Below are positions 1 to 35,749 of a DNA stretch of 64,000 bases, piece after piece. Positions within the stretch are counted from its first letter, which is position 1, and each line of letters starts with the position of its first letter. The position numbers and the translations under genes are program-made. The stretch is from Marsupella aquatica (lineage: Eukaryota; Plantae; Marchantiophyta). The DNA lies in assembly GCA_973895155.1 (NCBI GenBank), contig CCZZQB010000055.1, forward strand, positions 6,115 to 70,114, written 5' to 3'. The notes under the pieces were generated by a model that had not been told where the DNA came from, searched no databases, and saw only the letters and a list, made by a program, of their open reading frames with translations.

Positions 1-1
1 A

Positions 2-2215
2 TCACCCCATAAGAAAAAAGATAAGAAGAAGAAACATTCCAAGAAGTCTAGAAGTGATAAGTCAAGCTCGGATAGTGGGAGTAGCAAGAGTGAGTCATCT
101 TCTAGTTCTGAAGAAGAAAAAACTAGGAAAAGGAAGGGCAGAAGGAGAGGGAAGACGAAAGTCAAGATGGAGGCTAAGCCACCAGATAACATCGTAGCCC
201 TTACCGAGCAACTTAAGGCTATCATTGCAGAGGTAAAACCAAAGAAGAAGGTAGTACAGGAGGATAGCTCTGTATGGTGTGCCTTATGTTATAAAACCGA
301 ACACCATAAAGATGCGTGTCCTAAGCTTAATACTAATCATGTTCGGCATGTGGCCGAGATCAGACCATGTCAGGGAGAAGTAGAGTACTTTTTGGGAGAT
401 GCCGCTGATAGTGTTTTCGGCATCAGTGAGACTGGAGCACGAGACCTATCCAACAGACCTGCATCTCTGTGGTCAGGATTAAGGAACAATCCAGGAGAGA
501 TGTATCCTCGGATTATTCAGAACCCGTCAGTACCTCCTAGGCCGAATGTGCAAAGATTTGCGGCGTGCTATAATTGTGGTCAACCTGGCCATTTTGCTAG
601 AGAATGCCCGAATGCACGCAAACAGGGTGATGGACAACCAGCTCAGCTATGTATGGGATGCCGACAGGAAGGTCATATGCTAGGGCAATGTCCTACTTGG
701 TTGGCAGGCCTGGCCGCAAATCATAAGCTTTTGCCGATCAAGATCTTACCGCCAGGTACTACCCCCGGAGGAGTTCAAATCAACCACATCGAACTAGGAT
801 GGCAAGAGGATGCCGAGGCAGAGTTCGTACCATTTGATGATGAGGCCGAAGCCCTATCAACCTTCTCAGAGGAGGATTTAGATCATGATTGCTACCGGGT
901 CTCTACTCGATCTACCAGAAGGAAGGAAAGGTGGGATGGGCTGGCCAAAAATAAAGGGAAGGTTACGGAGGAAAGGATCGACTCTTCGTCAACATCAACA
1001 GAAGGAGAAGGGAGGGCTCCGACAATACAGGTAAGCCATGAGCCCACCAGTGAAACCAATCCTTCACAAGATAGCGACTTCAATCGAGATCATCCTAAGT
1101 TGTTCTACCCCTCTGTTACGGCTAGTGTTAAGGAACAACTAAGAGAATTAGAAACCCTGGAGAATACCGAAGCCATTGCCAAGGATGTAAAACGAGCAAA
1201 AGCATTGTTTGCTTCGGAAGACCCAACAGCTGTGGAGACTAGCGTGGCAAAACTGGCCGAATCCAAGACGGAAACACCACCAGAAGAGAAGCCGATTGTT
1301 CCCTATGACCTGGCTAAAGATGTACTAGAATCTAGAGTCTCGGCAACAGTAGGTCAACTATTGAAAAATAGCCCGTACTTCCGGAAGCAATTAAGGAAGG
1401 CTATTCTCGGCAAGCCGAGATTACCCAAGGTAGCAACCAGATCCGACGTACTAATGATAGAAGAAGATCAAGGAGCCCCAGCATTACCATTAATGATTCA
1501 AGGAGAATTATTACTACGGGTACCCATCGATGGAGGATCAGGGGTATGTATTATGATTGATTCAACAGCAAAAGGGTGGGGTCTAACACCGGAGATGACT
1601 GGAAGAGTGTTGAACATGGCCAATGGATATCAGGTCATTCCGACGGGAGTGTTAACCGGCATCAAGACAGAGATAGGAGGTATCTTCTTTAGCATTAACT
1701 ATGTAGTAATGAAGCCGGTAAATCCTACGTCATTCCGGCTATTGATTGGTAGGCCATGGCTGTACCTAGCCGAGGTAATAGAAGATTGGGGTAAAAAGCA
1801 GTTCACTTTCGGGACCCCCTCTATCACGGTATCCTGGGACACTAAGGATGACCGTAGGAAAAGCATAAGGGAAGTAGATGGGTACGATAGTGGACTGGAG
1901 TCAGCCGATGAAGTACGTTGGTTAGAATGCCTCACTAACCTAACCGAAGAAGGTGTCTTTGGACCAGAGGTACCCCCCAGCGGATTATGGCAAGAACCAA
2001 TGGAAGGTGACTTGGAAGAAGAAGACGAAGAGGTCGAGGACTGCTTTACAATAGAATCCACCTTTTTAGCTGCAATTCCGGAGGAAGTTAAGGATGTAGA
2101 CCAATTGGATGAAACGGCTAAGTGGGGAGCAGTAGCAGGGACAATGGATTTTCTGCAGGCGTTGTGGCAGAGCCGACGGGGTCCACAACGCCATCGATCA
2201 TCGGCAAGGAATTAA
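2..2215 (+). CDS. gag: Gag-protease polyprotein (5' partial; frame open from base 2)
   Basis: K/S-rich linker; three CX2CX4HX4C knuckles (CALCYKTEHHKDAC, CYNCGQPGHFAREC, CMGCRQEGHMLGQC); aspartic protease motif PIDGGSGV and LLIGRPWL. Confidence 0.93.
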   Translation, partial: SPHKKKDKKKKHSKKSRSDKSSSDSGSSKSESSSSSEEEKTRKRKGRRRGKTKVKMEAKPPDNIVALTEQLKAIIAEVKPKKKVVQEDSSVWCALCYKTEHHKDACPKLNTNHVRHVAEIRPCQGEVEYFLGDAADSVFGISETGARDLSNRPASLWSGLRNNPGEMYPRIIQNPSVPPRPNVQRFAACYNCGQPGHFARECPNARKQGDGQPAQLCMGCRQEGHMLGQCPTWLAGLAANHKLLPIKILPPGTTPGGVQINHIELGWQEDAEAEFVPFDDEAEALSTFSEEDLDHDCYRVSTRSTRRKERWDGLAKNKGKVTEERIDSSSTSTEGEGRAPTIQVSHEPTSETNPSQDSDFNRDHPKLFYPSVTASVKEQLRELETLENTEAIAKDVKRAKALFASEDPTAVETSVAKLAESKTETPPEEKPIVPYDLAKDVLESRVSATVGQLLKNSPYFRKQLRKAILGKPRLPKVATRSDVLMIEEDQGAPALPLMIQGELLLRVPIDGGSGVCIMIDSTAKGWGLTPEMTGRVLNMANGYQVIPTGVLTGIKTEIGGIFFSINYVVMKPVNPTSFRLLIGRPWLYLAEVIEDWGKKQFTFGTPSITVSWDTKDDRRKSIREVDGYDSGLESADEVRWLECLTNLTEEGVFGPEVPPSGLWQEPMEGDLEEEDEEVEDCFTIESTFLAAIPEEVKDVDQLDETAKWGAVAGTMDFLQALWQSRRGPQRHRSSARN

Positions 2216-5200
2216 ATACCAAGGGATCGGCATACAAGCCGATTACGAGGGCAGAACAAATTGAGGCCCTATTAAAAGCCGAGAGAGCACAGCGGCCTAA
2301 CTCTCAGGAGCAAGAGGTGGATGAGATGGACAGACACGATCTAGAGCCAAGGCAGGAAGGGGAGCCGACCACTAATTCAAAACCGAATAGACCGGTAAGG
2401 GGACAATCTATGGACACCAAGGAAGGGACCGACTCGGCTAGTCCAGCCGAGATCCCAGTTTATGGAGGTATGAGATTAGAGAGACTGGAAGCCGAACTGG
2501 ACCCGAATTTGAAGAAGCAGATTAATATGATCCAAGCACGGCAATATCGGAAGCTCGACTTAGGAGAGGGAAGAGAACTGAACTTAGGGAGAAACCTAGC
2601 ACCTGAGCTCGAGAAAGAGATCAATGACTTATTGATTGAATTTCAGGATGTGTTTGCATGGAGTCACCAAGATCTAAAGGGAGTAGATCCAACACTAGGG
2701 GAACATCGAATTGATCTCATGTTAGGAGCCAAATCATTTCGACAACCAATTCGAAGGATGAACCCGAAGTATTCCCTGCTGGTCAAAACAGAAATCGACA
2801 AACTAGTGGAAGCTGGATTCATCACTCTAGTCCTGCATTCAGACTGGGTGTCTCCAATTGTGATAGTTCCCAAGAAAGCTGGACCCGATGGTAAACCCAA
2901 GATCCGGGTTTGTCAGGATTACAGGAAGCTGAATGAAGCAACATTAAAAGACCATTTTCCTTTACCGTTTACTGATATGGTACTAGACATGGTAGCCAGT
3001 CATGAACTATATTCATTCATGGATGGATACTCTGGTTATAACCAAATCAGGATTCGGCAGGAAGACCAAATCAAGACGGCCTTCATCACGGAATGGGGGA
3101 TCTATGTCTTCAATCGTATGCCGTTTGGACTCTGCAACGCACCAGCTATGTTCCAACGATTAATGGTGAACATTTTTCATGATTACTTGAGAAAGTTCAT
3201 GGAAATCTTCATTGATGACTTTGCAGTATTCGGGAAGGCATCGAAACATGCTAAATACCTCAGGAAAACCTTCATGAGATGTAGAGAGGTGGGTCTCAAG
3301 TTACACCCAGATAAATGTTTTTTTGCAGTAACCGAGGGGGTGCTACTAGGTCACAAGGTATCAAGGAAGGGCATTGAGATTGACAAAGGTAAGCTAGCAG
3401 TATGGCTAGATATCATGCAACCTAAGAACATAAAGGATGTAAGATCCTTCTTGGGATGCATTGGTTACTATCACCGGTTCATCAAGGATTTTGCCAAGCT
3501 AGCTTTACCATTAACCAATATGCTCAAGGCAGGAGCAGACTTCGAACCCACACCCGAACGAGTCACAGCGGTGGTAGAATTGAAGCAGATGTTAGTAGAG
3601 GCCCCAGTCATGATAGCACCGGACTGGAACAAAGATTTTCATGTTTTTGTAGATGTCTCGGGCTTCTGTATTGGCTCAGTACTAAGTCAGTTGGATGAGA
3701 AAGGAAGGGACCATCCCATATACTTCGCAAGCCGTCAGCTTGCCGATGCCGAACGGAACTACTCTACCACGGAAAGAGAAGCATTAGGAGTCATTTATTC
3801 TTGTAAAAAGTTTAGGCATTATTTACTAGGGTACAAGGTAATCTTTCATACTGATCATGAAAGTTTGAAGTACCTAGTCAATAAGCCGGACCTTACAGGC
3901 AGAGTAGCAAGATGGATTTTGCTATTACAGGAGTTTGACTATGAGCTGAGGATCAAGCCAGGAAAGTTACATGCCAATGCCGACTTCTTTTCAAGGATCA
4001 CAGGTAAACCTGCCACGGATTGCATCGATGATCGATTCCCCGACGAGGAGCTATTCGTTGTGGAAATAGCTGGTACATGGTACCCTGAGATTTTACAATT
4101 TCTCAGCACTTCCAGATTACAGCCAGGATTAAGCCGAGAGCAAGCCGCAGTCTTTGTGCGGAAGGTCAGACAGTATCAGTGCATTAAAGGCATACTGCAC
4201 AAGCATGGAATCAACGGCACGATTCAAAGGTGTTTGGAAAAGAGAGAGGTAAAACGAGTCCTACGGGCCATGCATGGAGAGGAGGCCGGAGGACATTTTG
4301 CCCCAGTAACCACATCTAAGAAGATATTAAATGCCGGTTACTGGTGGCCCACCTTGCACAAAGATGTCTATCAGTTTATCAAACAATGCGATCCTTGTCA
4401 ACGAGCGGGAGGACCAAGGGCGTCCACCAGGCATCCACTGCACCCTATTCTACCTCTGGCACCATTCGAGAAGTGGGGTATTGATTACATTGGACCTCTG
4501 AAACCACTGACCCACCCTCGACGGAACAAGTACATAATCCTGGCTACGGATTATGCAACTAAATGGGTAGAGGCCAGACCAACAACGAAGGATGATGCAA
4601 TTACTACGGCTAGATTCATGTATGAGCAGATCTTCACCAGGTATGGAGCACCCCTAGAATTAGTTAGTGATAGAGGAACCCATTTTTTGAATGATATAAT
4701 TAGTCGTTTAAATGAGCAGTATTTAGTTAAACATAGGCCTACTACTCCCTACCATCCAAAGGCAAACGGGTTGACAGAACGAGCAAACGGGATCATAGGA
4801 AAGATATTGAACAAGACAGTAGCTCAGAACAAACTCGATTGGGATGATAAATTGTTTGCTGCTGTTTTTGCTTACAATCTGGCCTATAAATCCACTACCG
4901 GTCATACACCCTTCTTCTTAACCTTTGGACAAGAAGCCCTGGTACCCATGCAACTTGAGATACCGACATTTCAAGTTACAATTGAGGAAAGAGCCTCAGC
5001 GGAGGAGAGCCTAAAGGAGCGAGAATATAGGTTAGAAGCTTTAGAGGAAGCGAGAATGATTTCAGCCGAGAGAGTAGAATATAGACAGAATATCATGAAG
5101 CAGCAGTATGATAAAAGGTTAAAAGTAGTTAGTATTCATACCGGTGATCTTGTGCTACTTTATGACAGTAGGTATAGTAGGTTTCCAGGAAAGCTTTACA

Positions 5201-5388
5201 CTCGCTGGTTAGGACCCTTTAGAGTAACCATGATGTTCCCCAATGGCTCCGTGCAATTGGCCAACATTACGGGAGAGGTATATCCAGTTCGCATCCATTA
5301 TGACCGCCTCAAGAAATACTATATGGACGAAGATGAAGTTGTTCGCGAGGACGCTTCACAATTAAGTGGGGAGCTATGTGATGCCTAG
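2122..5388 (+). CDS. pol: Pol (RT-RNase H-integrase), in the -1 frame relative to gag-PR
   Basis: RT motifs (DYRKLN, DGYSGYNQI, MPFGL, FIDD); RNase H (VDVSG, EREAL, TDH); integrase H..GHF..C..C, IDYIGP, SDRGTHF, ERAN. No internal stops. Confidence 0.97.
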   Translation: MGSSSRDNGFSAGVVAEPTGSTTPSIIGKELNTKGSAYKPITRAEQIEALLKAERAQRPNSQEQEVDEMDRHDLEPRQEGEPTTNSKPNRPVRGQSMDTKEGTDSASPAEIPVYGGMRLERLEAELDPNLKKQINMIQARQYRKLDLGEGRELNLGRNLAPELEKEINDLLIEFQDVFAWSHQDLKGVDPTLGEHRIDLMLGAKSFRQPIRRMNPKYSLLVKTEIDKLVEAGFITLVLHSDWVSPIVIVPKKAGPDGKPKIRVCQDYRKLNEATLKDHFPLPFTDMVLDMVASHELYSFMDGYSGYNQIRIRQEDQIKTAFITEWGIYVFNRMPFGLCNAPAMFQRLMVNIFHDYLRKFMEIFIDDFAVFGKASKHAKYLRKTFMRCREVGLKLHPDKCFFAVTEGVLLGHKVSRKGIEIDKGKLAVWLDIMQPKNIKDVRSFLGCIGYYHRFIKDFAKLALPLTNMLKAGADFEPTPERVTAVVELKQMLVEAPVMIAPDWNKDFHVFVDVSGFCIGSVLSQLDEKGRDHPIYFASRQLADAERNYSTTEREALGVIYSCKKFRHYLLGYKVIFHTDHESLKYLVNKPDLTGRVARWILLLQEFDYELRIKPGKLHANADFFSRITGKPATDCIDDRFPDEELFVVEIAGTWYPEILQFLSTSRLQPGLSREQAAVFVRKVRQYQCIKGILHKHGINGTIQRCLEKREVKRVLRAMHGEEAGGHFAPVTTSKKILNAGYWWPTLHKDVYQFIKQCDPCQRAGGPRASTRHPLHPILPLAPFEKWGIDYIGPLKPLTHPRRNKYIILATDYATKWVEARPTTKDDAITTARFMYEQIFTRYGAPLELVSDRGTHFLNDIISRLNEQYLVKHRPTTPYHPKANGLTERANGIIGKILNKTVAQNKLDWDDKLFAAVFAYNLAYKSTTGHTPFFLTFGQEALVPMQLEIPTFQVTIEERASAEESLKEREYRLEALEEARMISAERVEYRQNIMKQQYDKRLKVVSIHTGDLVLLYDSRYSRFPGKLYTRWLGPFRVTMMFPNGSVQLANITGEVYPVRIHYDRLKKYYMDEDEVVREDASQLSGELCDA
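2146..2205 (+). promoter_or_regulatory. Candidate -1 programmed ribosomal frameshift signal
   Basis: G_GAT_TTT at 2146-2152 in gag frame; 5-nt spacer; perfect 10-bp stem GGCGTTGTGG (2158-2167) / CCACAACGCC (2183-2192); loop GCCGA (2172-2176) can pair with TCGGC (2201-2205). Confidence 0.75.
5364..5376 (+). other. Polypurine tract
   Basis: AAGTGGGGAGCTA immediately before the LTR start TGTGATGCC. Confidence 0.8.
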
Positions 5389-8300
5389 ACAGGAATCACT
5401 CGACCGGTTAAGTGGGTAAAGCAGGAAGGCACCCTAGGAACACCTTAGTATAGTGACAAAACAAGGAAAATATAAACAATTAGGGGCAACCATGGAACCC
5501 GGGCAGAGGCCGGAGGTAAGGCTGAGGGTGAAAACCCGATTAGGGTTAGGGCGCGTTAAGCGTCGGCGGCTAGGAAGGATCAATGGGAAGAAGGACCGGC
5601 AGAGGAGAGGGGTAAGGAGCGCTTGCAGGAGATGGTGGCTCATTTGCGAGCACGAACTAGGCAGACGACTACGGGAGGCCAACTACTGTCAGCTGCTTAG
5701 GCAAGCACTCGGGGAGAGAGTAGATACCGACGATCGACCTAAGGAGGGTATGAGCAACGTCAATCAAGCGGCACATTTCTGGGGATGCCTGTTCGAACGG
5801 GCAACTGAGTACATCAAGACTTACGAGGACGAGGAGTCAGAAAGGGCAGCTCGAGAACGGCAGGAGCTCGCTCGATTGTGGGATCTGCACAAGACGGCTT
5901 TCTTAGGAGGCGAACTCATCAAGGACGAGTTCCTGTGGACGCCTACTTCCAATCAACTCGACGATCTTCTGTTTTGCAAAGACAGCATCGTCGGCATCTG
6001 AGAGGCCATCAAGAACTGCAACGACATACACTGGGAATTAAAGGGTAGCACGGAAAGGTGGACCCGGGCAACGGTGCTAGGAGAAACCTCCACGGCAGCA
6101 GAGATGAAGAGGAAGGGAGCCGTCAACGATGAAGCCACCCCGGCAAAAAGAACGAGGTCGGCGGCACCAAAGAAGCCAGCCGAGCAGCAGAGCAGGAGGC
6201 AGGGAGAAGCCGAAGAGGAGGAGGTCGATCCCATCAAGGCCATTCCAACCAGGGATGACACCTGGAAGGGCTGGGCGGCAACCCTACCGGTGGAGGTGCA
6301 ACTACATTTTGCATGGGAGGAGGATGCATGCTTTACGGCCATGCAGACCAAGAAGTACCAAGGCTTCATGGCCGGATCCGGCTTGGAGGCCTTTGTAAGA
6401 TTACCATGGCTGAAGCCGGAGGTACCGGAGTCAGACCTATTAGAATTCGTGGGGTCATGGGAACCCGAGACCAATTGCACGAGGATATATGGGAAGGATT
6501 TCTATCTTACTCCCAAGGTAATTGCCGAAGTGTTTGGCTTGCCGATGGGCAATAAGACCAAAGTTGATACCAGGAAGACCTTGCCTGACAAGGAGTTCCG
6601 GTCGTTCCCCGGGCCATCAACGAAGAATGGCTTCTTCCGGAACACCTGCACCAACCCGCACATAGGAGAGATGATCGACTTCTTGCGGGTGACCATGCAT
6701 TGTAACTTGCCGAGGGCAGAGATCGGCAAGGCACAGGTCTATCTGGCAGAAAGGCCAGACCCAAGCCGGGACTACAACGGGTACCTCCTCAACCAATTGA
6801 AGAAGATCTTAAAGGAGGAGCAGCAGGTAATCGGCATGGGGAGCGTGTCACGGCTTGGCTATCACATGCCGCTGTTGTGCCGGTATGCCAGAGGTCAGAC
6901 TTTTGCCCCGGTACTTCCCCTGCAGGTAAGGGCACCCGAGGAAGCTCCAACACCGAGGCCGTTGGCTGAGAAGCCTCCACCACCTGTTAGTCCTACGATC
7001 GAGCAAGTGTTTAGGCCCAGGAAGGAAGACTTGCCGATGCAGCAACCAGGCATGCAGAGTCTGCTGAAACTACTGGAGAAAGAAAAGAAATCGGCATCGG
7101 CAACAACAACGGCAACGGCAACAATGCAGGACACTACTACAGAGGTAGGCCTACACCGGCTCACAAGAGAAAACCCCTTTGCTGGAGACAAGGAGAGAAT
7201 CAGGCCGAAATCCAAGCCAGGTGTTCGAATGTACGTGGGAACCTCAAGCTCCGAATCTGAGGCAGAATTGCCTGAAGCTCCTACCGACGAAGAGGAGAGG
7301 GAGAAGCCGGACGTCCAAGAAGTAGAGGAGGCAGTGGAGGACTGCAGCCATGATAATTCCGGCTATGGGTCGGACCATGACATTCCAGGAGTAAGGACCT
7401 GTGGCCGGTTTGTCCCCACACTTCCAAGGGTAGTGCGAGGGGACCCCAACCAGCAGAGTAGCCCTGAGTCTCCCCCACCAGATGTTGCTCCCCCGAGCTT
7501 CGACGGCATAAAACAGACGGTGCAGGAATTTCAGGAGCGAATCAAGCAGGAGGAAGAGGCCGCCCTGGCTAAGGAAAAGGATTTACCAGGAGGACATTGG
7601 CCGGAGGACATCAGGCGGCTAGCCGAAAAAGGAAGCAAACCTCTAGCCACGATTGAAGAGATCCGCAGGACGGCGTGGGAGCAGAGGCCACGATGGGCGA
7701 TGCCGATCACTTCTACTTACTCCACCTACGCTAAGAATAGAGCCATGGAGTATGGTGAGATGTGTGGGGAACTTGCGCTCGGCATCTTTGGAGAGGAGTT
7801 GGAGGTAGGACCCTTTTTCCATAGGGAGCAGTTGGAGAAGCACCAATTAGAAGAAGCGGTGGCTTTAGAGAGAAGCAAGAAGGACGAGGTCATTTGGCGG
7901 CTTAGGAGGATGGGAGCCGAGATTGAAGATCTAAGGGCGGCCAAGAAAGCCCAAGATGAACTGCGGATTAAACGACATGAGCTGAACATCATGCAGGGGC
8001 AGTTGGACGCCGCGCAGGCTGATAATCAGAATATCAAGGATAAACTGACTCAGACGCAGGAAGAGTTGGCCGACACGATCAAAGAGAGGGAGAAGTGGAA
8101 GCAAGAGCTGAAGAATACAGAGGAGGCCCATATAACAGCCAACAGCCGGGCCATGGCGGAGACCCAAAGAAAGGAATGGGCGTTGAAAGGGGAGCTCGAG
8201 AAAATCCGCGGAGCCCTTGAGCAGAAGGAGGTCGAGTTAGGGAAATCCTATCAAGGGATTATGGCGCTGCAGCAGGAGCTTGCGTCCCTGACGGCCAGCT

Positions 8301-10027
8301 TCAAGGCCGACCTAAGGGAGAAGGACGAGATGCTCGAACAGACTTACGCCAAGATGAACCAGATGGAGTCTGTCATCATTGCAGAGCTCGACAAGGAGCT
8401 AAGAGCAACCCAGGAGGAGAGGGCTACCTTGAAGAAGGAATTGGAGGAAGCCCACAGGGAGCAGGAGGAGGCCAAAAACGAGCTGGAGGGGGCACGTAAG
8501 GACCTGGATGAAACCCAAGAGGAGTTGGAGGAAATCACGAGGAAGATGGAGAACCTACAGCGGCGGGCCGACAACCAAACAGAGCGGCTGAAGAAACAAG
8601 CCGCAGTATTTAAATGCTTAGCTGCAGCAGGTCCATCTCCCGTTGGGACAAACCAGTTACCAGGGGTGGTAATTGCTGAAGGACAAGCCGCGTCAACTGC
8701 ACCAGTGCCGGAAGTAAGTGGGAAGGGGAAGGGACCAGCTGCCGAGCCACCAACGAAGAAGAAGCGGAAACCTCCAGGGTCAAGGAGTAATACGACTTCA
8801 CAGGCCGTGGTGATCAAGGAGGTAGACCCAGCACCGACCCCAGACAGGGTCACGGCTAAGGATCCAACTACCCTAGGGGAAGGGGAGGCCGAAGCCGAGG
8901 GAGTGGCTGAAGCCGAAGCCGTGGGAGTGGCTGAGGCCGAAGCCGTGGGTATTGCCGAGGCCGGTGTCGAGGCTGAAGCCGAAGGTGGACCCAGTCAGGC
9001 CGATGGAGAGTTGACTCGGTCAAGGGCAGGTAATCTGTCAGTAGGCGGGCCAACGGCAGTGGCTGAGGAGGAAGTGTTGGGGGCATCCATTGAGGATCCA
9101 CCACCGGTGTCGTGACGGTGCAAGGGCACCGTTCCTTTTAGGGAAGGCGGACGTGGAGGGAGGAGGCGTGAGTGGGCAGGGCGGGCGCGGATCTCCACGT
9201 TTAGGATTAGGATCAGAACCAGGAGCGGCCCTGACACTTAGCTTAGTGGGATTGCGGTCCCACTGGTAGGAGCAACACTTGTGCTCCTGCCTTGCTGTAC
9301 ATAGGTAGATTCGGGCAAGTAGATTACTGTTAAGTAGATTAGGCTTACGATGCAAAGAATGGCGGATCCACTACCAGGATAAGTACCTGGGCAGCGGGGA
9401 GCTCAGGGCCTCTTCTTTAGCAAGTTTTTAGTTTGCACCAGCCGGGCTGGGATCAAGTAGTACGAGAAGCTCTCGGTTAGTCATACAGTGACCCTTGTGT
9501 ATATTCATGTTTCCTCATGCCTAAGAGCTGAATAGAGTTGGCCTCACGGCTTAGTTCGCAGAACTTGTGTATGAGATGTACTGTTTGTATGGCAAGTGCA
9601 TGGTATGATTCAGTCAGAATGAGTCATTTTGCTATTTGTGTGTCGCATTAACTTGTGTGAAGAGTGCCCACATCAACAGAAGGAAGGAAAGTAAGCAGGG
9701 GAGTGAGAGTTGGATGTGTCGAGCTGAGAGAGGTCTTAGCGGCTTAACCGAGCCTATTGGGGATCATTCCGGCGGCGGAATCCAAACATACCTAACAGGA
9801 AGACAGGGGAAGACAGGGGAAGGCCTATATTAGGTCGGCTACGTATCTCATGACCCGATGAAGGATCTGTCCAGTATATGTGTGTAAAATGTTAATAGTA
9901 GTAGTAGAAGGTTAGCAGCGTCCCATGCCGCTAAGCCGCGGAAACGGCCTCGCCAAGCACGAAACCTGCGGGAATCGGCTTGAGCTGGGGGGTTTCTTGG
10001 GTTTAGGGAGCCATGGGACGCACCACA
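5377..10027 (+). repeat. 3' LTR of element 1 (family A, copy A1, 4651 bp)
   Basis: Begins TGTGATGC and ends GCACCACA; the same boundaries recur at 37328-41908 (-) and 50337-54897 (+), and the 3' end recurs at 59386 (-); preceded by the PPT. Confidence 0.92.
5750..9115 (+). pseudogene. LTR-embedded ORF (about 1120 aa): conserved retroelement accessory domain plus acidic/Pro-rich linker and long coiled coil; one premature TGA at 5999-6001
   Basis: ORFs 5453-6001 and 6074-9115 are in one frame; the stop aligns with an Arg codon (CGG) in copy A3. Contains the LPW...EF...T..YG...LT...I..VFGLP motif. Confidence 0.85.
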
Positions 10028-10689
10028 AACCCGAGCCGAAGATTCTGAGCGTAATTGAAGCATGGTGTCGTCCAGCTTCTTGAGTTCGGCCTGCGCTCCG
10101 CTTAACTCCTGGGTTAGTCCGTCCCTCTGTTCGACAGTGTGGACTAAATCCTCGCGGCGGGTCGTTGCCTCCTCCTCGAGGTGCTCTACCAGCATCTGGA
10201 GACGCCCGATCTCATTCCCCTTCGCCATGAGTTCTTCTTCCAAGCGGCTGACGATCCGTGGTTGGTGCTCTAACATGAAGAAGGCTGGCTGAAAGTACGC
10301 CGAGACTTGTTGTCCGATGTATGTCGCCAACTCCCCAGACATAGTCTGGCTAAACTTCTGGACCAGGTCGTAGGCCATGGTCCCCGGGGCTACTTGGTAG
10401 TCCTCCATCCTCTCGGGTACCGGTGGTTCCTCGGCAGGGGCAATGAGCTCCTCCGTAGTCAGCGCTGGGGAGGGGAAGGTTTCTTCAGGTGGTGGAGGGA
10501 TTGGGGGTGGTTGTACTGCAGGTAGCGGAGGCTCAACGGAAGGAGGTGGTGGAATTTCCACAGGGGGCGGTTGCGGAGTATTAGTCGGGGCTTCCGGCTC
10601 GGGGTTTGTCCGAGGGACAGTAGTCCGCGTAGTCGGGGTTGCCTCCTCTGGGGCGGGGGTGACATTACCCGGGGCTGAGGTGGCCATAT
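10028..10689 (-). pseudogene. Distal part of the LTR-embedded ORF of family B1, cut by element 1 on the left and the DNA transposon on the right
   Basis: Pro-rich linker then coiled coil (MATSAPG...SARV) running into the A1 LTR end; joins in frame to the ORF beyond 24151 when the transposon is removed. Confidence 0.75.
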
Positions 10690-10715
10690 ATCAGCCTATT
10701 CATTAAAAGTGTATT
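10690..10715 (+). repeat. Left terminal inverted repeat ATCAGCCTATTCATTAAAAGTGTATT
   Basis: Exact reverse complement of 24122-24147. Confidence 0.95.
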
Positions 10716-10740
10716 TTCTTTTGTTCACAAATCAGTCCTG

Positions 10741-10830
10741 AAATGTACACTTTTATGTCCCCAAATGTACACTTTAAGAAGCCCAAATGTACACTTTTTG
10801 ATACCTAAATGTACACTTTATAGGCCAAAT
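10741..10830 (+). repeat. Left subterminal repeats (AAATGTACACTTT)
   Basis: About 4 copies; the same motif recurs at the right end. Confidence 0.85.
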
Positions 10831-11078
10831 CTTATTAGTATTATATTAATATATTATCTTATATTAATTATAATAGTATTATATTACTTATTAGTTCACA
10901 AAGAACCATGGGATAGAGATCATACTTGTAAAAACATTTACGCACAAAGAAGCCTAAGCAAGGACCATTGATTGATAATGTGTGAAATAATTATATACAA
11001 TTGTGTCCAAACTTACAATGAATATCCAGGGCTGGCACCCATTTTTACTATCTAATGGGCTTAACATGAGTCAGATCT

Positions 11079-12203
11079 CTAAACAAAGTGCTCCTTACAA
11101 TATTTATTTGAGCACGTGCCCTTGTCTCCTTTACTATCTACCCTAATGTCACGGTTGCAACTCCCTTTATCTTCAGGGAGATGAAATTTGGTGGTGTTGT
11201 TCCTAACTGCTATAATCTCCCGCAAAAAGTGTCTGGGATTTTCTCTATACAGACCTGAATATTCCCGTCCTACAAATGATCTAGCAAGTGAGGTGACAAG
11301 TGCATCGTCAAGTTCCACCTCAGGACGTAAGCTACATATACGGTGCTTCACAGCCCAAGGAATCTCATTGCTATTGAGGTCCAACACACTATGCCTATAC
11401 TGTGACTTCCAAATTTTTGCTGCACATCTCTTACTAAGTTGATCATAAGTAATCTCATTTTTTGCCTTGTCTCTCTTAATGTGCAATAGAGACCACTTTG
11501 GAGAGTTTAGGAGAAGATAACAACGAATGTCACTTGCATGTGACAGTTTCTCAAGACATGGCCAAAGAATTGTTAGAAGAAAATTGTCTCCACGATTGGC
11601 ATGCGTGTAGGGCACTGGAAATAGTCCGGTCATGTCTGGGTTGGCAAATGCCTTTAAGGGGGAGTCATCCACAAGGAGTGTGTTGGTTTCATCATATAGA
11701 TTTCCAAATGCACTCCATACCACCCGAAAATCCTTCAATAGCACATTTGCCTTTCCATTTGTAATGTCACGCCTTTGAATGCCTGTGTCAAAGGCTTCCA
11801 CCTGTGTGAATACAAACTTCAGTTTCAACCGCTCCTCAACAGTGAACATCATGTTCAACATTTTCACTGTCCGCGGCATCCCAGCACATGTCCAAATTGC
11901 AACGTCAAACCGGTCAAAAACCAACTTTAGAAACTCATGGAACCCTGGCCTCTGTGTATACATGCGACTAGTTCCATTTGATCTATCCCAATGCACTCCA
12001 TTTGGGGTCACAATGTTTCTGGATTTGCCCTTGCTTTGGAATTCAAGTGAATCCCAAAGTATTTTGTTAAGATCCAAAATCAGCAACTTCCGCTTGATGG
12101 GACAAGGTCTCGATTCTGCAAGTGCAACAAATACAACTCTTAGAAAGAAAACCAAATTTGAACTTTGGACTGATTTGAATCTCAGTCCAAAAATACAAGA
12201 CAA
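11079..12203 (-). CDS. FCP1/NIF-family HAD phosphatase-like protein (transposon cargo)
   Basis: KLLILDLNKIL (DxDxT-like motif, degenerate), RPGFHEFL, FDVAIWT, TLLVDDSPLKAFANP. The true 5' boundary is probably an acceptor TTGCAG at 12116. Confidence 0.8.
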   Translation of the reverse strand: MSCIFGLRFKSVQSSNLVFFLRVVFVALAESRPCPIKRKLLILDLNKILWDSLEFQSKGKSRNIVTPNGVHWDRSNGTSRMYTQRPGFHEFLKLVFDRFDVAIWTCAGMPRTVKMLNMMFTVEERLKLKFVFTQVEAFDTGIQRRDITNGKANVLLKDFRVVWSAFGNLYDETNTLLVDDSPLKAFANPDMTGLFPVPYTHANRGDNFLLTILWPCLEKLSHASDIRCYLLLNSPKWSLLHIKRDKAKNEITYDQLSKRCAAKIWKSQYRHSVLDLNSNEIPWAVKHRICSLRPEVELDDALVTSLARSFVGREYSGLYRENPRHFLREIIAVRNNTTKFHLPEDKGSCNRDIRVDSKGDKGTCSNKYCKEHFV

Positions 12204-12352
12204 TGACTAACAACAAAGAAAACCTATATACCATTTTTAGAAGCCCCAAAGAGCGTAGGTGGATATCGAGGCTCTAATTGCTGACCGCATTCTGTGAGAC
12301 CGAGAAGTATTTTAGATTGGTATGAAAAAATGGAAAGTCAGACGGTTTGATC

Positions 12353-14728
12353 TCAGTCTGAAAAAAGAGATCCGTATTCATCAATAATGTCAACACCCAG
12401 CTCCTCTTGGATTTCAAAATTGACATCTGAAGTACTTTGTTCTACCCAATAAGGTGACGTCCAAACAGGAGTTATCAATCCCAATTCTCCTCTCTTATAC
12501 TCCTTCCTGTTAAGAATCGATGGAGCAGCATCCAATGAAACTTCTTGGCCTCTATTTGGCCCACTTTTCCACACATAACATCGTGCATCACGTTCAAGTG
12601 ACCTCCATCCGGTTGATCCAACTCTATTCCCTTTTTTCTTTGAGAGAGGAAGGACAACTGGACTTCCCGAGTGTGAACGAACAAAAACCAATTTGTCATC
12701 AGAAGCTGAAAAGAGTGTGTCAGGACAAATTGAAGCACCTGCCTGGTTGTCAACAGTCGCTGATGCACGGGCTTCTGGGGTCATGGGAATCTCACGTACT
12801 TCGACAGCCGTCCCGGGAATCAAATTTTGGGTGTCAGCTTCATTCGAATTGACCTGTCTGTCTCCACCGTCCGCGACCAAATTGGTTGACGAACAATTTT
12901 CAAATGTATCAATGTCAATCGGATCATCAATTCCGTCCATTTCTCGTTGCACCACATTTGGATTGAGACCATCCTTGTCCAAGTTGTCATCAACCTCAAC
13001 TTCATAGGGTTCCAAAGGGACGTCATCTGCACGTGATGAAGGGCGTGGTGCAAGACCAACGTTATCATCAACATCGTAGGGTTCTATGCTTTCACTTTGA
13101 CCTACACGGTCATCCAAATTCTTTGCATACGCCACCTCTGATGCCCCATCATCTTTGACTGACTTAGCGCCCACTTCTTTGGAATTATCAGCTGATTCAT
13201 GTTCGGTAGAAACATCCGCAATAGTGGGTTTCCAATGCCTAGAACTCCCACCACGAGGATCCCAATTTTCCTTGATTGAGGGGACCCTCTCGCAAAGGAA
13301 TGAAGCATACGCTTCCACAAAGTGTCTCTCATCTTGAGAGTCACAATAAACAAAGCATTCGCGTTGCACCAAGAATGCTGTCTTCATCACTTGACCACCC
13401 GAGAAAAAATCAAGAATCAAGTCTCCAGCTTCTGACAAGGATTCAATAATCCTCTGTATCATCCGCGTGGGTTTGGCATGTGGATTCACCCAACCACCAC
13501 GAGCACCAACTATCTCAAATCGAGGGGCCATGTGCAAAACCTTGGTCGCCTCTTCTGGGGTCAGCATCATTTTTAGATCTTCGGGTTTTGACACGTCGTC
13601 TATGTCAACCTTTGCCTTCCCAGTGTCAATCTTGGTGACCTCAAAATCAGTATCTTTTGAACCAAAAAAGAATTTTGGCTTTGGGTGATTGGGTTTGAAA
13701 ACATCATTCCAATTCACATTTTCATCTCGAGAAATTCCTGCAAATATAACTTCTTCAATTCCGCCTCCCCAACACGAATCAAGCGGGTGCGGTTGATCCT
13801 CTCGAGAATAACTCCCATACTCAATGTGAATGGTGAGAGATTTCTCTTGTCCCAATTTTCGAAGTGAGCTTAGGACATTCATTGCAAGAGGCCCCGGATG
13901 AACAGTTATGGCTACAACGATTGTAAGATTTTGTGGTAGCTCCACAATGTATTGCAGAAAGACCAAAACTTCTGCTTCCGTCCACAGCTTCTGGTGATCT
14001 CGACTGAAGTCAACAATGGCAAGTGAGCACGTTGGAGATGATTCTTCTATTGCTGGTGGATCAACTGTTTTCATTAGATTGTCACTAAAGAACGTGACCC
14101 ACGGTTGGCTCCGAGAATGTGTCCCTCCGCCAAACTTCTGGCAATAAATATCATCAAGGCGCATCACCAGAGCTATTGGCAAGATTGCACTCTCCCTGGT
14201 ATGATTTGGCTTCAACAGATTTGACAAAAAAACTTCACCAGCCGCTCTTCTGCATCTACTGAATTCTGCGTCAACACTCAACAATGGCAGAACCTCTACA
14301 ACTTTCTTCCAATCGGTATCCGAAGGGAAATTCCTTGGATCCTTGCCGAAGTAGTACTCCTCAATGAGAGACTTGAGCTTCCTCACTTTTTTCACATCCT
14401 TCGCAAGCTCCTCTATTGAGGGTATGTCAGATTTATTTGTGGCATCTTTCTTCAGCAATGCCTTTCCTGACTTCACTTGTGTCAGGATTTTTGTGATGTC
14501 TTTCTGTGAGATCAACTCACCATCAAAGGGACGAAACATGGCAACGGTAATTGCTTTTTCGGACTTGTTATTTCCTTCCATCCCAGCTCCATCAGGAAGT
14601 TTCCCATGCAACCACATCTCACAGACTAACCGCCACAACTCAAAAAGATCGTTGTCCACAAAAAGTAGCCAGTATACATTTCGCAAGTCCTTCCTGCCCA
14701 TAGTCATTCTTGCCAGAGCCAACCAATC
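12353..14728 (-). CDS. Exon 2 of ParB-like/amino-methyltransferase-like gene: beta-class N4/N6 MTase-like fold plus acidic tail
   Basis: HAKPTRMIQRIIESLSEAGDLILDFFSGG resembles HPTQKP...GDLVLDPFxGSG; upstream SLAIVDFSR sits at the expected DPPY position; acceptor TTGTAG ends at 14729, phase 0. Confidence 0.7.
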   Translation of the reverse strand, partial: DWLALARMTMGRKDLRNVYWLLFVDNDLFELWRLVCEMWLHGKLPDGAGMEGNNKSEKAITVAMFRPFDGELISQKDITKILTQVKSGKALLKKDATNKSDIPSIEELAKDVKKVRKLKSLIEEYYFGKDPRNFPSDTDWKKVVEVLPLLSVDAEFSRCRRAAGEVFLSNLLKPNHTRESAILPIALVMRLDDIYCQKFGGGTHSRSQPWVTFFSDNLMKTVDPPAIEESSPTCSLAIVDFSRDHQKLWTEAEVLVFLQYIVELPQNLTIVVAITVHPGPLAMNVLSSLRKLGQEKSLTIHIEYGSYSREDQPHPLDSCWGGGIEEVIFAGISRDENVNWNDVFKPNHPKPKFFFGSKDTDFEVTKIDTGKAKVDIDDVSKPEDLKMMLTPEEATKVLHMAPRFEIVGARGGWVNPHAKPTRMIQRIIESLSEAGDLILDFFSGGQVMKTAFLVQRECFVYCDSQDERHFVEAYASFLCERVPSIKENWDPRGGSSRHWKPTIADVSTEHESADNSKEVGAKSVKDDGASEVAYAKNLDDRVGQSESIEPYDVDDNVGLAPRPSSRADDVPLEPYEVEVDDNLDKDGLNPNVVQREMDGIDDPIDIDTFENCSSTNLVADGGDRQVNSNEADTQNLIPGTAVEVREIPMTPEARASATVDNQAGASICPDTLFSASDDKLVFVRSHSGSPVVLPLSKKKGNRVGSTGWRSLERDARCYVWKSGPNRGQEVSLDAAPSILNRKEYKRGELGLITPVWTSPYWVEQSTSDVNFEIQEELGVDIIDEYGSLFSD

Positions 14729-14967
14729 CTACAATCCAAAAGGAAAGCTAGTCAGTTATCCCCAACGCAAGGGTTGGAAAAAAAGGATTCTAATGTGTGA
14801 TAATAGTATTGGATTCGGATGGTCTCAATCAAAAAGAAAACTCGTACTAAACATTCCAAAAGTTCCAATACTCTTTGACAAATCGTGTCGGACTGAGACC
14901 ATCCGAATCCAAAATAGAATTACTCTCTATGGTAGAGAAATGCATACAAAGTAATCACATTTCTTAC
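14729..14967 (-). other. Predicted 239-bp GT-AG intron
   Basis: Donor CAG|GTAAGA and acceptor TTGTAG|GAT are both phase 0, giving NQKFQ-DWLALARM in frame. Confidence 0.8.
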
Positions 14968-16575
14968 CTGAAATTTTTGGTTGTCTTGAGCATTTGTTTT
15001 GTTGTCGCCATGTTTTGGTTTGTCTGGATTTCCATATTCAACAAACTGCCGCCTCGCATGGACAACTGTATCTTTAAAGCAAGATTGAAACACCATCGTG
15101 CTATTGATGGCGTTTGATCTCATGGAGTGCTCAACAAGAATTGAAGACGGTGTGCGATCAGACAATATTCTGGATTTCCTGAATTCTAACTTCTTGGCCA
15201 ACTGGGTGAGCTTGGCATCCTTCGTTGCCCAATCACGAATCCATCTCGCAGCTCTCGCAGAGTGCTGACCACTAACGGCTAGAAATTGGACCTCGCCCTT
15301 TTTCACTCCGGCCAAAAAATCCTTCCGGTCCGACTCCGTATTCTCAAAGTGGAGTACCTTTCTTTGCTCGACGTTAAAAGGAATCAAATCAGCGACATGT
15401 GGCTCATGCCCAGGTGTTTTGATCATGGAATCAGCAATGTCTTGCACATGATCAAAATTCATCATCCGATAGCATAGTCTCGCTGGTGCGGCAAAAATAC
15501 TTTCAACTGGGATCAGAAAAATTTCGTTTATCCCAAAAGTATAGTACTGCTCCATTTGTTGAAGAACTTCATTCCCTTCTAAGACGTCTTTCTCCTCTGG
15601 AGCATGTGGCCTATCACTCTCATCTTCAGCATGTAATGAAAAATCTATAGGAGTTGAATTCACAACTCCGGTGTCGGTTTTTTGTTTCTTCTTCTCCCTC
15701 GACTTCTTCTCGGCTGGAAGCTTCTTCTTCTCGGCTGGAAGCTTCTTCTTCTCGGCTGGAGCCGTGATCTTCTTCTCAACTGAAGTAGGTTTCTCAACCA
15801 GAAGCTTCTTCTCCCTCTGCTTTCGCTTCCCTGCCGCTCTATCCATGGTTGTTGTTGCAGTAGTTTGTGCTGTCTCCGTCGTAGTTGCTGGAGTTCCTTT
15901 GGCTGGCGTAGACTCAATTATTTTCTGTGGTTGTGTACTTTTCCTCAACTTCACCAAAGACTCTACCCATAGATTTGCTTTTTCCAGGTCAAGCGTGTGT
16001 GCAAAGGCTAGTGCCTTGGCGATCCAAACATTTGAGTCTGGTGACACCAGACCTGCTTTCTCAAGCAAATTGTTAAGAGTCCATGTGGATGGAAGAGAGA
16101 ACTTTGATGGGTTGTTTACAATGTTGAGTTTCAAATAAAGAAACCCATAAAAAATGTCCAAAGGAAGCATTCCCTTCAGTCCTCCAATAATCTTCTCCTT
16201 TGTGTAGGATTTTGGAAAGAATCCCATCGACAACACACTTAATTCCCCACTTGCATACCATTCCACATTGAACTCGGCCGAGAAAGCCTTTGTGGGGAGC
16301 TGCAACTTTGCCCACCTCATCGTGTCCGACACCTCTACAATGATAGAATTCATTCCTCTTCCTATCATTCCCACAGAGACCACGGGTCCGATGACCAATG
16401 TTTGGTTGTTGCCTGTCCTGATCTTGACACATAACACTGGATCCTGAATGTTAAATGAATTCAGGCGGAAGTTAACTCGCGAGAACTCAAGTCCCCACCG
16501 AAATCCTGGATCGCGGTCCTCCAAAATGAGCCCATCGTCGCAGTCTGCCTCTGAAATGGCGAGAGTTGTATTCAC
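14968..16575 (-). CDS. Exon 1 of cargo gene: unknown N-terminal domain, Lys-rich linker and ParB/Srx-like domain
   Basis: IPVESI...RMMNFDHVQDIADSM...FLAVSGQHSARAA resembles the ParB/Srx core ending in (D/S)G(Q/x)H(R/S); 21-bp repeats encode AEKKKLP. Confidence 0.65.
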
Positions 16576-16673
16576 CAGATCACTCTCTGCATTGGAGAGT
16601 GAAAATTCATATTAGACTTCAAATCCATGAAATTTGTTTTAAGAAATCACTGTCAAAGTGAGATTGAAGGCTC

Positions 16674-17340
16674 TTGGATTCGGACCATCCGAATCCAATA
16701 CAAGAAGCCCACTTGGATTCAGATGGTCCGAATCCAAACAACCCTCTTAGATTCGGACCATCTGAATCCAATCAAGCCACTTGGATTTGGACCATCCAAA
16801 TCCAAACAACCCACTTGGATTCGGATGGTCCGAATCCAAACAACCCTCTTGGATTCAGACCATCCGAATCCAATCAAGCCACTTGGATTCGGACCATCCA
16901 AATCCAAACAACCCACTTGGATTCGGATGGTCCGAATCCAAACAACCCTCTTGGATTTGGATGGTCCGAATTTAAACAACCCTCTTAGATTCAGACCATC
17001 CGAATCCAAACAACCGACTTGGATTCGGATGGTCCGAATCCAAACAACGCTCTTGGATTTGGACCATCCAAATCCAAACAACCCACTTGGATTCGGATGG
17101 TCCGAGGTTGTTTGGATTCGGATGGTCCGAATCCAAACAACGCTCTTGGATTTGGACCATCCAAATCCAAACAACCCACTTGGATTCGGATGGTCCGAAT
17201 CCAAACAACCCTCTTGGATTTGGATGGTCCGAATTTAAACAACCCTCTTAGATTCAGACCATCCGAATCCAAACAACCCACTTGGATTCGGATGGTCCGA
17301 ATCCAAACAACGCTCTTGGATTCGGACCATCCGAATCCAA
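16674..17340. repeat. Left palindrome array: about 34-bp units (TTGGATTCGGA-CCA/TGG-TCCGAATCCAA plus about 9 bp), 102-bp higher-order period
   Basis: Read directly; frame translations repeat every 34 aa. Confidence 0.92.
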
Positions 17341-17794
17341 CAACTTAAGATGCATGAATAAACCTCCGGGAACTTACTTTGGACTTGAGATTGAAATTCT
17401 TGGGAATCCCTAAGCGCTAGGGCCACAAGATCACCGACAGAGGAGAGATCCAAGTCATCAGATTCTTCGGCGAGTAGGACGATGACGGTTTTCTTGGAAA
17501 CTTCCATTTTTAGGAGTGACACGTGGCAGGATATACTGAGGACACGTCAAGATGGGCAAGATCTAGGGCGTTGCAGCAGATTAGGGCAAGAAGGCAATTA
17601 GGGCAAGGGCAAGGGATATCAGCGGCAGCCAGCCAAGAGCGAGAGCGAGGAGCGAGAATGAGGAGCTAGAGCGAGAGCGAGGAGCGAGAGGGAGGAGCGA
17701 GAGTGAGGAGCGACAGAGAGAAAACAACAATGAGGTCTGTGGAAGACCTCATCCTCCCTTTACCCCCTCCTGAAAGGCTTGTTTGCGTACGGAT

Positions 17795-17852
17795 GATCGC
17801 TGCACGGATCATCTCTGTACGGATCATCTCTGTACGGATCATCTCTGTACGG
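17795..17852 (+). repeat. 15-bp tandem repeat CGGATCATCTCTGTA x3
   Basis: Direct reading. Confidence 0.85.
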
Positions 17853-18502
17853 ATAGAGACCAAGAAGGGATCTGGTCCTATCAGTTTGGGTGGGACGCTA
17901 GCTGTATTGTCTGACACAATGGATTGAAAAAGGATTGGATGATTGTTCTAACCGCGATACTCGGTGTTGCCTCAACCTTATCGGATCGCACATTCAGGGC
18001 CGAACATACCAACCCACGAGTATAAGAGGTACTCTACGGACATCATTGTTGTTTTAGTTTCATATCTTCACTTGGGCATCCAGGTCTGCGCAACTCCTCC
18101 TCAGCTCTTCTCTCTGATGGAGTTTAGACTTGAAGTGGCTTTGATAGCTTTCTTAGTCAGATTGATATGAACTTATTCATCAATTTAGAGGTAGCAGAGC
18201 CAACCTTGGAGACATACTGGAAAAACAAGACTGCTGAGGTGAGTTATGGTCTTAGTCGCTTTGCTTATTTTGAGTTCTTAGGGAAGAGAGACGAACCCTT
18301 TCACTTTGTTCTGCATTCTAGTGACTTCCCAATTATTATTTCACGAATTACCCAATGTTCCGAAAAACCCGGAATGTCTAAATTTGATTAGGAAGAGATC
18401 TCAATCTCAATATATCCATCTCAACATAATCTTCATTGTGGAGTTAGACCATTTGAATCCAGACTTGATGTGTGGATTATAATGGTCCTAATCCTAGATT
18501 GT

Positions 18503-19633
18503 TGTTTGGATTCGGATGATCCAAATCCAATCCATTTCTAGGATTGGGACCATCTGATCAGATTCCAATCTTGGTTTGGATTCGGATGGTCCGAATCCAA
18601 GAGGGTGTGTTGGTCCGAATCCAACCGTGCAATGCTTAAATTGTGACCTTTGGGATCCAATCTCGGTTTGGATTCGGACCATCCCAATCCAAGCGAGATG
18701 GTAAATACAGTCTGGTTTTTGATTTGGATGGTCCGAATCCAAGAGGGTGTGTTGGATTCAGACCATCCGAATCCAAGCGTGCAATGCTTAAATTGTGGCC
18801 TTTGGGATCCAATCTCGGTTTGGATTCGGACCATCCCAATCCAAGCAAGATGGTTGAATTTGGGCGTTTTAAATACAGTCTGGTTTTGGATTCGGATGGT
18901 CCTAATCCAAGAGGGTGTGTTGGATTCGGACCATCCGAATCCAAGCGTGCAATGCTTAAATTGTGACCTTTGGGATCCAATCTCAGTTTGGATTCGGACC
19001 ATCCCAATCCAAGCGAGATGGTTGAATTTGGGCGTTTTAAATACAGTCTGGTTTTGGATTCAGATGGTCCGAATCCAAGAGGGTGTGTTGGATTCGGACC
19101 ATCCGAATCCAAGCGTGCAATGCTTAAATTGTGACCTTTGGGATCCAATCTCAGTTTGGATTCGGACCATCCCAATCCAAGCGAGATGGTTGAATTTGGG
19201 CGTTTGAAATACAGTCTGGTTTTGGATTCGGACCATCCCAATCCAAGCCGGTTTGTTGAATTGGGACCTTCGGGATAGAATCTGTGTTTGGATTCGGACC
19301 ATCCGAATCCAAGATGGTGGGTTGGATTCGGACCTTTGAAATACAATCTGGTTTTGGATTCGGACCATCCGAATCCAAGCCCGGTGCTCAAATTGGGACC
19401 TTTGAAATAAAATCTGGGTTTGGATTCGGACCATCCCAATCCAAGCGCGTTTGTTGAATTGGGACCTTTGGGATCCCATCTGGGTTTGGATTCGGACCAT
19501 CCAAATCCAAGAGGGTGTGTTGGATAGAGGTTGGTTTGGATTCGGACGATCCCAATTCAAGCGAGATGCTTAAATTTGACCTTCGGAATAAAATCTTCAT
19601 GGTTTTGATTTGGACCACCGGCCCCAATCCAAG
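18503..19633. repeat. Right palindrome array: same 25-bp palindrome, 168-bp higher-order unit in its core
   Basis: GATGGTCCGAATCCAAGAGGGTGTG-like block recurs near 18724, 18892 and 19060; frame translations repeat every 56 aa. Confidence 0.9.
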
Positions 19634-19747
19634 CGTGATAGTTGAGCCAATGTTTGGATTCTCGGAATGGCAATCAAATGACCGTATGGATAATTGTGAG
19701 TCTCTTCAAATTCTTGTCATTCGGATTTGTGATGGTTTTTCTGAAAA

Positions 19748-23563: not shown

Positions 23564-23784
23564 TTGTCACTAGCTAAGATATAATTAGATAGTTACTAGT
23601 TTTTATGTAAGAGTTATATATATTGTGAGACCATGCCATTGAGTGTTTAGTTACTTAGTAGACTATCTACTCATTTTCTAAACTTTTGATTATTATGAAT
23701 ATGAATGTTTATTTTTTCTGCATAATTAAAAATATTTTTTATTAATTTCTTTATTTTAAATGATTACAATAAAAGTTTTCAGGA

Positions 23785-24110: not shown

Positions 24111-24121
24111 AATCAAATAAT

Positions 24122-24147
24122 AATACACTTTTAATGAATAGGCTGAT
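24122..24147 (-). repeat. Right terminal inverted repeat
   Basis: AATACACTTTTAATGAATAGGCTGAT. Confidence 0.95.
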
Positions 24148-24151
24148 ATAT

Positions 24152-35716: not shown

Positions 35717-35749
35717 CTCCCTCAGTTGCCGTTTGTACTCTGGATTGTT

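Follow-up and report, generated by a model that had tools for sequence, protein, structure and literature searches.

Among the systems compared here, sequence-specific anti-silencing has been demonstrated for VANDAL DNA transposons only. Their VANC proteins bind short motifs accumulated in their own family, each protein being paired with its own motif (excerpts of PMC5735166). The VANC DUF1985 domain and PMD-C/MAIN proteins share a fold (excerpts of bioRxiv 2024.09.27.615353 and PMC13547354), and PMD-C proteins (MAIN, MAIL1, MAIL2) are described as protein-DNA-motif modules that oppose Polycomb silencing (excerpts of bioRxiv 2024.09.27.615353). What the extra ORFs of plant Ty3/gypsy retrotransposons do has long been debated (PMC7264820 and PMC6317226, in excerpts). 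Extra ORFs with PMD, Transposase_28 or Athila ORF-1 domains are known in Ogre, Retand and Athila (excerpts of PMC6317226), and such ORFs lie mostly between pol and the 3′ LTR (PMC7264820), as the Athila one does (excerpts of PMC7264820 and PMC11728184). Long LTRs or extra ORFs are likewise found in Retrosat2/RIRE3, whose ORF0 is upstream of gag-pol, and in Retand, whose TRP28 protein (PF04195) is encoded antisense in the interval between pol and the 3′ LTR and is predicted to bind DNA; neither gene is described inside the LTR in the excerpted text (PMC3485330, PMC11963269).

The 64-kb stretch of Marsupella aquatica DNA analysed here (the window; positions are counted from its first letter) is a nest of plant-type Ty3/gypsy elements, as resolved by ORF map, Pfam and repeat alignments. 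The pol of elements A and B has the order PR-RT-RNaseH-integrase and lacks a chromodomain, which assigns them to the non-chromovirus Ty3/gypsy (Pfam, ORF map). TG...CA LTRs, a polypurine tract and 5-bp target-site duplications (TSDs; CCGAC and AAGTA) fit a Ty3/gypsy LTR retrotransposon. A Pfam search for a second RNase H in pol of A gave no match; the liverwort Tat Z2 likewise lacks an additional RNase H (excerpts of PMC13468544). The features are the following:

1–5376, plus strand: internal part of element A with the end of gag, protease, RT-RNaseH-integrase and the polypurine tract; WWGCCG is enriched here.
2122–5388, plus strand: RT-RNaseH-integrase ORF of element A.
5377–10027, plus strand: A1, the family A 3′ LTR (4651 bp, TG...CA), with the entire accessory ORF inside.
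5750–9115, plus strand: ORF A (~1120 codons), with N-terminal domain, core, linker, helical/coiled-coil part and variable tail.
5750–6080, plus strand: N-terminal helical domain (~110 aa), common to A, B, B1 and homologues.
6323–6901, plus strand: core domain (~190 aa), predicted fold of VANC21/DUF1985/PMD/Transposase_32 type.
7500–8620 (approximate limits), plus strand: helical and coiled-coil region of ORF A (Pfam coiled-coil matches all sub-threshold).
10028–10685, minus strand: continuation of the B1 ORF past the DNA transposon (linker and coiled coil), cut by element A.
24152–26016, minus strand: 5′ part of a family B1 LTR that encodes the N-terminal domain and the core (24743–24165).
26017–28292, minus strand: family B 3′ LTR, 5′ part, truncated by B1 (core 26938–26348).
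28365–31975, minus strand: family E solo LTR (3.6 kb, TG...CA, TSD AAGTA), with the GTCGACCCGG motif.
30968–30426, minus strand: core of E, in a frameshifted ORF that ends at 29353.
31976–37326, minus strand: gag-pol of element B, with gag starting at 42277 and A2 inserted in it; enrichment in ACCCG/CAACCCG is mild.
37328–41908, minus strand: A2, a family A LTR within the gag of element B, its ORF broken by stops and frameshifts.
42407–46366, minus strand: family B 5′ LTR (3960 bp), with an ORF from 45892 to 43299 broken by stops.
45010–44420, minus strand: core of the B 5′ LTR ORF, which also has the N-terminal domain and coiled coil.
50337–54897, plus strand: A3, a family A solo LTR (TSD CCGAC; core 51291–51860; one in-frame stop).
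59386–60431, minus strand: A4, the terminal 1046 bp (3′ end) of a family A LTR, with 99% identity to A1.
61545–63416, minus strand: ORF D, of similar layout.

The TG of A1 at 5377 directly follows the polypurine tract and its CA end is at 10027. A1 is 84–86% identical to A2 and A3, and no TSD was found at A2. The E solo LTR is inserted in the integrase end of element B. The 5′ end of element D falls outside the window and the LTR context of its ORF is putative; the element (60434–64000) has a 623-aa ORF with a coiled coil and a 47-bp tandem repeat at 63825–64000. The family is abundant in matching contigs (20,055 and 34,515 in two runs), and summed contig depth is about fourfold higher from the LTR boundary in two runs (rough means, which are not copy numbers). 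A and B share ~45 bp (89%) over the polypurine tract and LTR start (5340–5385/28329–28284), beyond which their LTRs are not alignable as DNA. A further related family is represented at 47429–48650 by a fragment with 72% identity to the B LTR in its 3′ part, covering the end of the coiled coil and the non-coding tail. Element B has a candidate primer-binding site (TGGTGCTAG...) at 42407–42380, ~13 bases past the LTR end, an unusually long spacer. A 13.5-kb DNA transposon (10686–24151) interrupts the B1 ORF; it has 38-bp terminal inverted repeats, 22-bp subterminal repeats and internal 34- and 66/168-bp arrays. Its cargo is unusual: a NIF-type phosphatase (11079–12206), an N6/N4-methylase-like fragment (12353–14728), a 563-aa protein and a 1272-aa DUF7869 protein. 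A second methylase-like ORF at 55433–56038 resembles, by eye, the one at 12353–14728.

LTRs of the ORF-bearing families measure 3.6–4.65 kb and contain the long ORFs wholly, solo LTRs included. The ORFs are on the sense strand, start 373 (A) and 474 (B) bases into the LTR and stop 912 (A1), 865 (A3), 892 (B), 988 (E) and 1111 (D) bp before its end. Starts a few hundred bases in and stops 865–988 bp before the end place them inside the LTRs, not in the interval between pol and LTR. TATA-like boxes are present at 5471 (A) and 45998 (B), and the encoded proteins carry basic clusters. Every copy of the ORF in the window carries stops or frameshifts; in A1 there is an in-frame stop at 5999–6001, while the core domains of A, B (45010–44420) and E are free of stops. 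A transmembrane helix, as expected of an env-like ORF, was not found in A, B, B1 or D (top 19-residue hydropathy 0.96–1.22).

The core domains of A, B and B1 are homologous (phmmer: A-B 9e-19, A-B1 2e-18, B-B1 2e-27), with identities of 24% for A-B and A-B1 and 37% for B-B1, and the motifs quoted for the three in the first-pass annotation are present. Conserved positions of the core include R84, N102-G103, R117, R122 and H181. That annotation had recognised the domain at 6340–6800, limits that are too short for the span of 6323–6901 defined here, and had assigned it to at least four diverged families with E as a more distant member. Phmmer, a deep profile and hhalign bear this out for A, B, B1 and E. 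With the five-sequence profile the E core scores a marginal 6.8 bits, a value that 1 of 500 shuffles reached. The deep profile detects it clearly, at 33.6 bits, which none of 500 shuffles attained (reversed sequence −1.0), and E joins the family in profile-profile alignment (hhalign P 97.7%, 155 columns). For D only the likeness of overall layout holds. Its core was detected neither with the deep profile (2.0 bits, 9 of 500 shuffles as high) nor by hhalign (P 1.6% in local mode; in global mode 65 of 100 shuffles scored at least equally well), the protein search found no homologues of ORF D, and a place for D as fifth member of the family is not supported. By eye, D has a GLTEF start and a helix spacing like those of the core. 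The embedding of the ORFs in LTRs proved right, as documented by A1 and by the TSDs of the A3 and E solo LTRs. So did the succession of linker, coiled coil and 0.9–1.1 kb to the LTR end (865–1111 bp), from which B1, whose ORF also continues, had been omitted. The search proposed by the annotation, with a HMMER profile of the five window copies, yielded 78 proteins at E ≤ 1e-3, 37 of them at ≤ 1e-10, among 1.84 billion representatives. A word-based search with the five-sequence alignment gave no match among longer proteins, HMMER working without a word index. A search with the E core gave 15 longer relatives, of which the closest comes from Calypogeia fissa (48%). An organism is named for 11 of 30 homologue clusters and all are liverworts (10 C. 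fissa, 1 Riccia sorocarpa). The N-terminal domain is present in B, B1 and six homologous proteins, and in A at 22–24 bits.

The core domain is under purifying selection. Between A copies its dN/dS is 0.08–0.15 (the value of 0.08 having a range of 0.04–0.14), compared with 0.21–0.28 for the N-terminal domain, 0.20–0.21 for the coiled-coil region and 0.62–0.69 for the tail. For the core, comparison of the two B LTRs yields 0.39 (0.19–0.90). The protein was maintained during the spread of the families, and the annotated old, maintained module agrees with the 24% identity between families and with dN/dS of 0.08–0.39.

The AlphaFold model of 6323–6901 is confident (pLDDT 93, pTM 0.89), and its best structural match is DNA-bound VANC21. 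Among 48,161 PDB representatives VANC21 (9LNK) was the sole match at Z ≥ 5, with Z 7.7, rmsd 3.9, 184/193 residues and 9% identity, a range that the tool grades as ambiguous and in which, below Z 8, matches can be generic; the next match had Z 3.6. The VANC21 structure 9LNJ gives the same match. Foldseek ranked VANC21 second (E 2.3), with TM 0.48 vs at most 0.23 among the other matches listed. Despite Z < 8, the match spans the whole predicted domain and stands alone, and the core is predicted to have a VANC21-type fold. A shared fold by itself shows no function. The N-terminal domain (pLDDT 75) gave only generic helical matches, the top one at Z 5.3 without a gap to the next. In a viral structure library the best match was weak, an unnamed protein (A0A890CAY5, 805 aa; E 0.027, TM 0.37).

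The Transposase_32/Athila resemblance noted in the annotation stands at the level of fold and falls at that of Pfam membership. The Atlas model of the E homologue P0001 has TM 0.65 to the Transposase_32 (PF20167) cluster over 183 aligned residues, both being predicted structures, TM 0.69 to the ATHILA-cluster model and TM 0.50 to the PMD model, all below the Atlas naming threshold. A feature search with homologue P0021 returned PMD and DUF1985 clusters at 0.86 (a lead only), and a possible PMD/DUF1985 likeness has indirect support through the VANC21 match. Pfam searches of the window proteins passed no cut-off and gave no Transposase_32, PMD (PF10536) or DUF1985 (PF09331) match, the comparison with PF20167 and PF10536 having been proposed at first pass. 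PF20167 matched 2 of 53 homologues weakly (17 bits vs a cut-off of 45), neither the window cores nor the 53 homologues reached the gathering cut-off of PF10536 or PF09331, and PDB sequence searches gave no relevant match. Judged from the models, the core is remotely related to the Athila Transposase_32 ORF and to PMD, though it is a member of neither Pfam family.

Motifs were searched for because VANC proteins pair with short motifs accumulated in their families. Counts are given as observed/expected, from 200 trinucleotide-preserving shuffles each. For WGCCG the three A LTRs give 60/26.9, 44/25.4 and 54/25.4, and A gag-pol gives 40/18.6; its counts in 7 other regions lie close to expectation (z −2.1 to 1.5). 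The corresponding values for AAGCCG are 19/4.1, 18/3.9, 19/4.5 and 10/3.1, with a mild rise in the B LTR too (7/2.5). The A LTR counts are not independent because the copies are related; WWGCCG marks the A LTR and, independently, A gag-pol, over which, as over the LTR, it is spread at 3–9 per kb. The E LTR is marked by GTCGACCCGG: GACCCGG has 6/0.3 occurrences there and elsewhere at most one, and all four exact copies of TCGACCCGG in the 64 kb are in E. The marker of B, CAACCCG (LTR 9/0.5, gag-pol 4/0.9), is weaker than those of A and E. The same enrichment tests gave no clear motif for B1 or D, the D pattern CCGKA not being significant (29/21.5). Exact 8/9-mer counts were little above chance and the motifs emerged with mismatch-tolerant and 5–7-mer tests.

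All three motifs survive trinucleotide shuffles, those of A and B also codon shuffles, and they are largely unenriched in other families. The A motif in coding DNA exceeds synonymous-codon shuffles (47/19.0, 30/13.2, 23/12.0); it occurs on both strands and in all frames and is thus a feature of double-stranded DNA. As the patterns had been picked after inspection, a held-out test was run. Out of 122 CG 5-mers, the A3 LTR and the non-homologous A gag-pol yield an identical top three, and held-out A 5-mers have a mean z of 4.6–4.9 in A regions and ≤0.8 in 8 others. The B motif replicates weakly (mean z 1.0–1.6); that of E is strong and comes from one LTR, E having no internal region. The CG-to-deaminated ratios of TGCCG and AGCCG are 2.7 and 1.8, compared with a median of 0.58. 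Motif CpGs are only modestly better conserved between copies (0.67–0.85 vs 0.56–0.78), a difference with p < 0.05 in two of six comparisons that are not independent, and CpG depletion persists (o/e 0.64–0.76 in A and B LTRs, 0.38 in E). The motifs are dispersed through LTR and coding DNA rather than placed in non-coding tandem repeats; E has a 15-bp-spaced motif triplet within the ORF linker. The host DRE and GCC-box sites (GCCGAC and AGCCGCC) were rejected as a source of the A motif since its flanks fit neither. Of 64 proteins, the C. fissa homologue of E has the strongest E-motif peptide footprint (9 vs 2.1; 0/1000 shuffles), an indirect hint that the E motif may travel with the E protein subfamily. 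The family-specific CpG motifs of A, E and, weakly, B are new here.

The LTR-borne protein resembles VANC (VANC21, 9LNK/9LNJ; excerpts of PMC5735166) in its predicted fold over 184/193 residues and in being an accessory transposon gene product with a coiled coil (excerpts of PMC13547354). Like VANC variants, it is associated with family-specific short motifs (strong in A, strong in the single E LTR, weak in B). VANC genes are found in VANDAL/MuDR DNA transposons of eudicots whereas the present ones are in liverwort retrotransposon LTRs, and VANC motifs of 8–9 nt form non-coding tandem repeats while those described here are short, dispersed, CpG-containing and also coding. The identity to VANC21 is 9%, and the liverwort ORFs have an extra N-terminal domain and no DUF1985 HMM match. 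We infer that the protein would work like VANC yet is not a VANC member. The Athila extra ORF (Transposase_32 PF20167/ATHILA PF03078) is also a sense-strand accessory ORF of non-chromovirus Ty3/gypsy elements and the nearest predicted-structure match of the E family, but it is located outside the LTR. PMD (PF10536; PMD-A of Gypsy/Ogre and the PMD-C group) would belong to the same fold group and was surveyed in angiosperms (excerpts of PMC5418596). Among the literature matches listed there was no LTR-embedded gene of VANC fold and no such family motifs in bryophyte retrotransposons; prior notice elsewhere is possible.

The explanation that we favour, with modest confidence, is a VANC-like protein-plus-motif anti-silencing system in LTR retrotransposons that is kept even in solo LTRs. 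On balance, the ORF product is more likely than not to be a nuclear, oligomeric, sequence-specific DNA binder shielding its own family, with motif and protein co-evolving. Basic clusters would direct it to the nucleus, the coiled coil would mediate oligomerisation and the core would bind the short family-specific CpG motif enriched across the element. Once bound, it may reduce DNA methylation, Polycomb marks or both, in the manner of VANC and PMD-C proteins, and family copies would thereby be kept free of host silencing. Divergence of the core would lead each family to accumulate its own motif. In the simplest layout the gene is probably in U3 with its own promoter, to which the TATA-like boxes may belong. 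Because it sits in the LTR, the gene is copied twice per element and left behind in solo LTRs; if it has a promoter of its own in U3, every solo LTR would amount to a complete expression unit, possibly supplying protein in trans. Of the functions suggested at first pass (anti-silencing, targeting, movement), the VANC21-DNA fold match and the family-specific CpG motifs favour DNA binding with anti-silencing over movement or targeting. Several points count against this reading: the ambiguous Z and Foldseek E of the fold match, the lack of a Pfam match above cut-off, the weak replication of the B motif and the lack of a clear one in B1 or D, the mild rise of AAGCCG in the B LTR, the modest conservation of motif CpGs, the persisting CpG depletion and the broken state of every copy. 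The motifs are also short, dispersed and partly coding, unlike those of VANC, and PMD proteins act in host silencing too (excerpts of PMC5418596).

The same fold and motif data would apply to a family-specific transactivator, whose core would bind the motif and switch on the LTR promoter while leaving silencing marks untouched. Foamy-virus Tas and HTLV Tax are models for such a protein. The basic clusters are compatible with it, as is the regulatory role proposed for the Retand TRP28 proteins (excerpts of PMC11963269). The spread of the A motif over gag-pol, however, suits element-wide chromatin protection more than a promoter, and all motifs found contain CpG; we consider this alternative unlikely. 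Somewhat less probable still is a role in the retrotransposition cycle, be it in integration targeting, nuclear import, RNA export or as a particle scaffold, with motifs arising separately from host factors or mutational bias. Functions of this kind have been suggested for extra ORFs (PMC7264820), and the long coiled coil, the N-terminal domain without a clear fold match and the lack of a motif in B1 or D would be in keeping with them. Against this, a host-wide bias cannot yield different motifs in adjacent families, the trinucleotide and codon controls hold, the A motif flanks do not fit GCCGAC or AGCCGCC, and A, B, B1 and D have no membrane helix.

A self-limiting repressor, which would bind the family motif and promote silencing or compaction so that solo LTRs dampen their family, is to our mind very unlikely. 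MAIL1/MAIN do act in silencing of host heterochromatin (excerpts of PMC5418596) and persistence in solo LTRs would provide copy-number feedback, but the family is abundant in both runs, motif CpGs are retained rather than lost, and PMD-C proteins oppose Polycomb silencing in later work (excerpts of bioRxiv 2024.09.27.615353).

The LTR-embedded domain is real, selected and structurally interpretable. Its gene survives solo-LTR formation, which normally strips all coding capacity. Since the diverged proteins of the window each come with a candidate motif in A, B and E, the question of extra-ORF function becomes reducible to a swap experiment. On the predicted structures, the PMD/VANC fold would be extended to liverwort retrotransposons, which bears on whether the host MAIN/MAIL genes were domesticated from retrotransposons (left open in the excerpts of PMC5418596). 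Tentatively, then, liverwort LTR retrotransposons may run sequence-specific anti-silencing with a VANC-fold protein and a co-evolving CpG motif, their solo LTRs being lasting sources in trans. In that case the VANC/PMD/Athila-ORF fold would be an ancient counter-defence domain of retrotransposons, predating the split between bryophytes and vascular plants, and the extra ORFs found in Athila, Ogre and Retand would descend from it.
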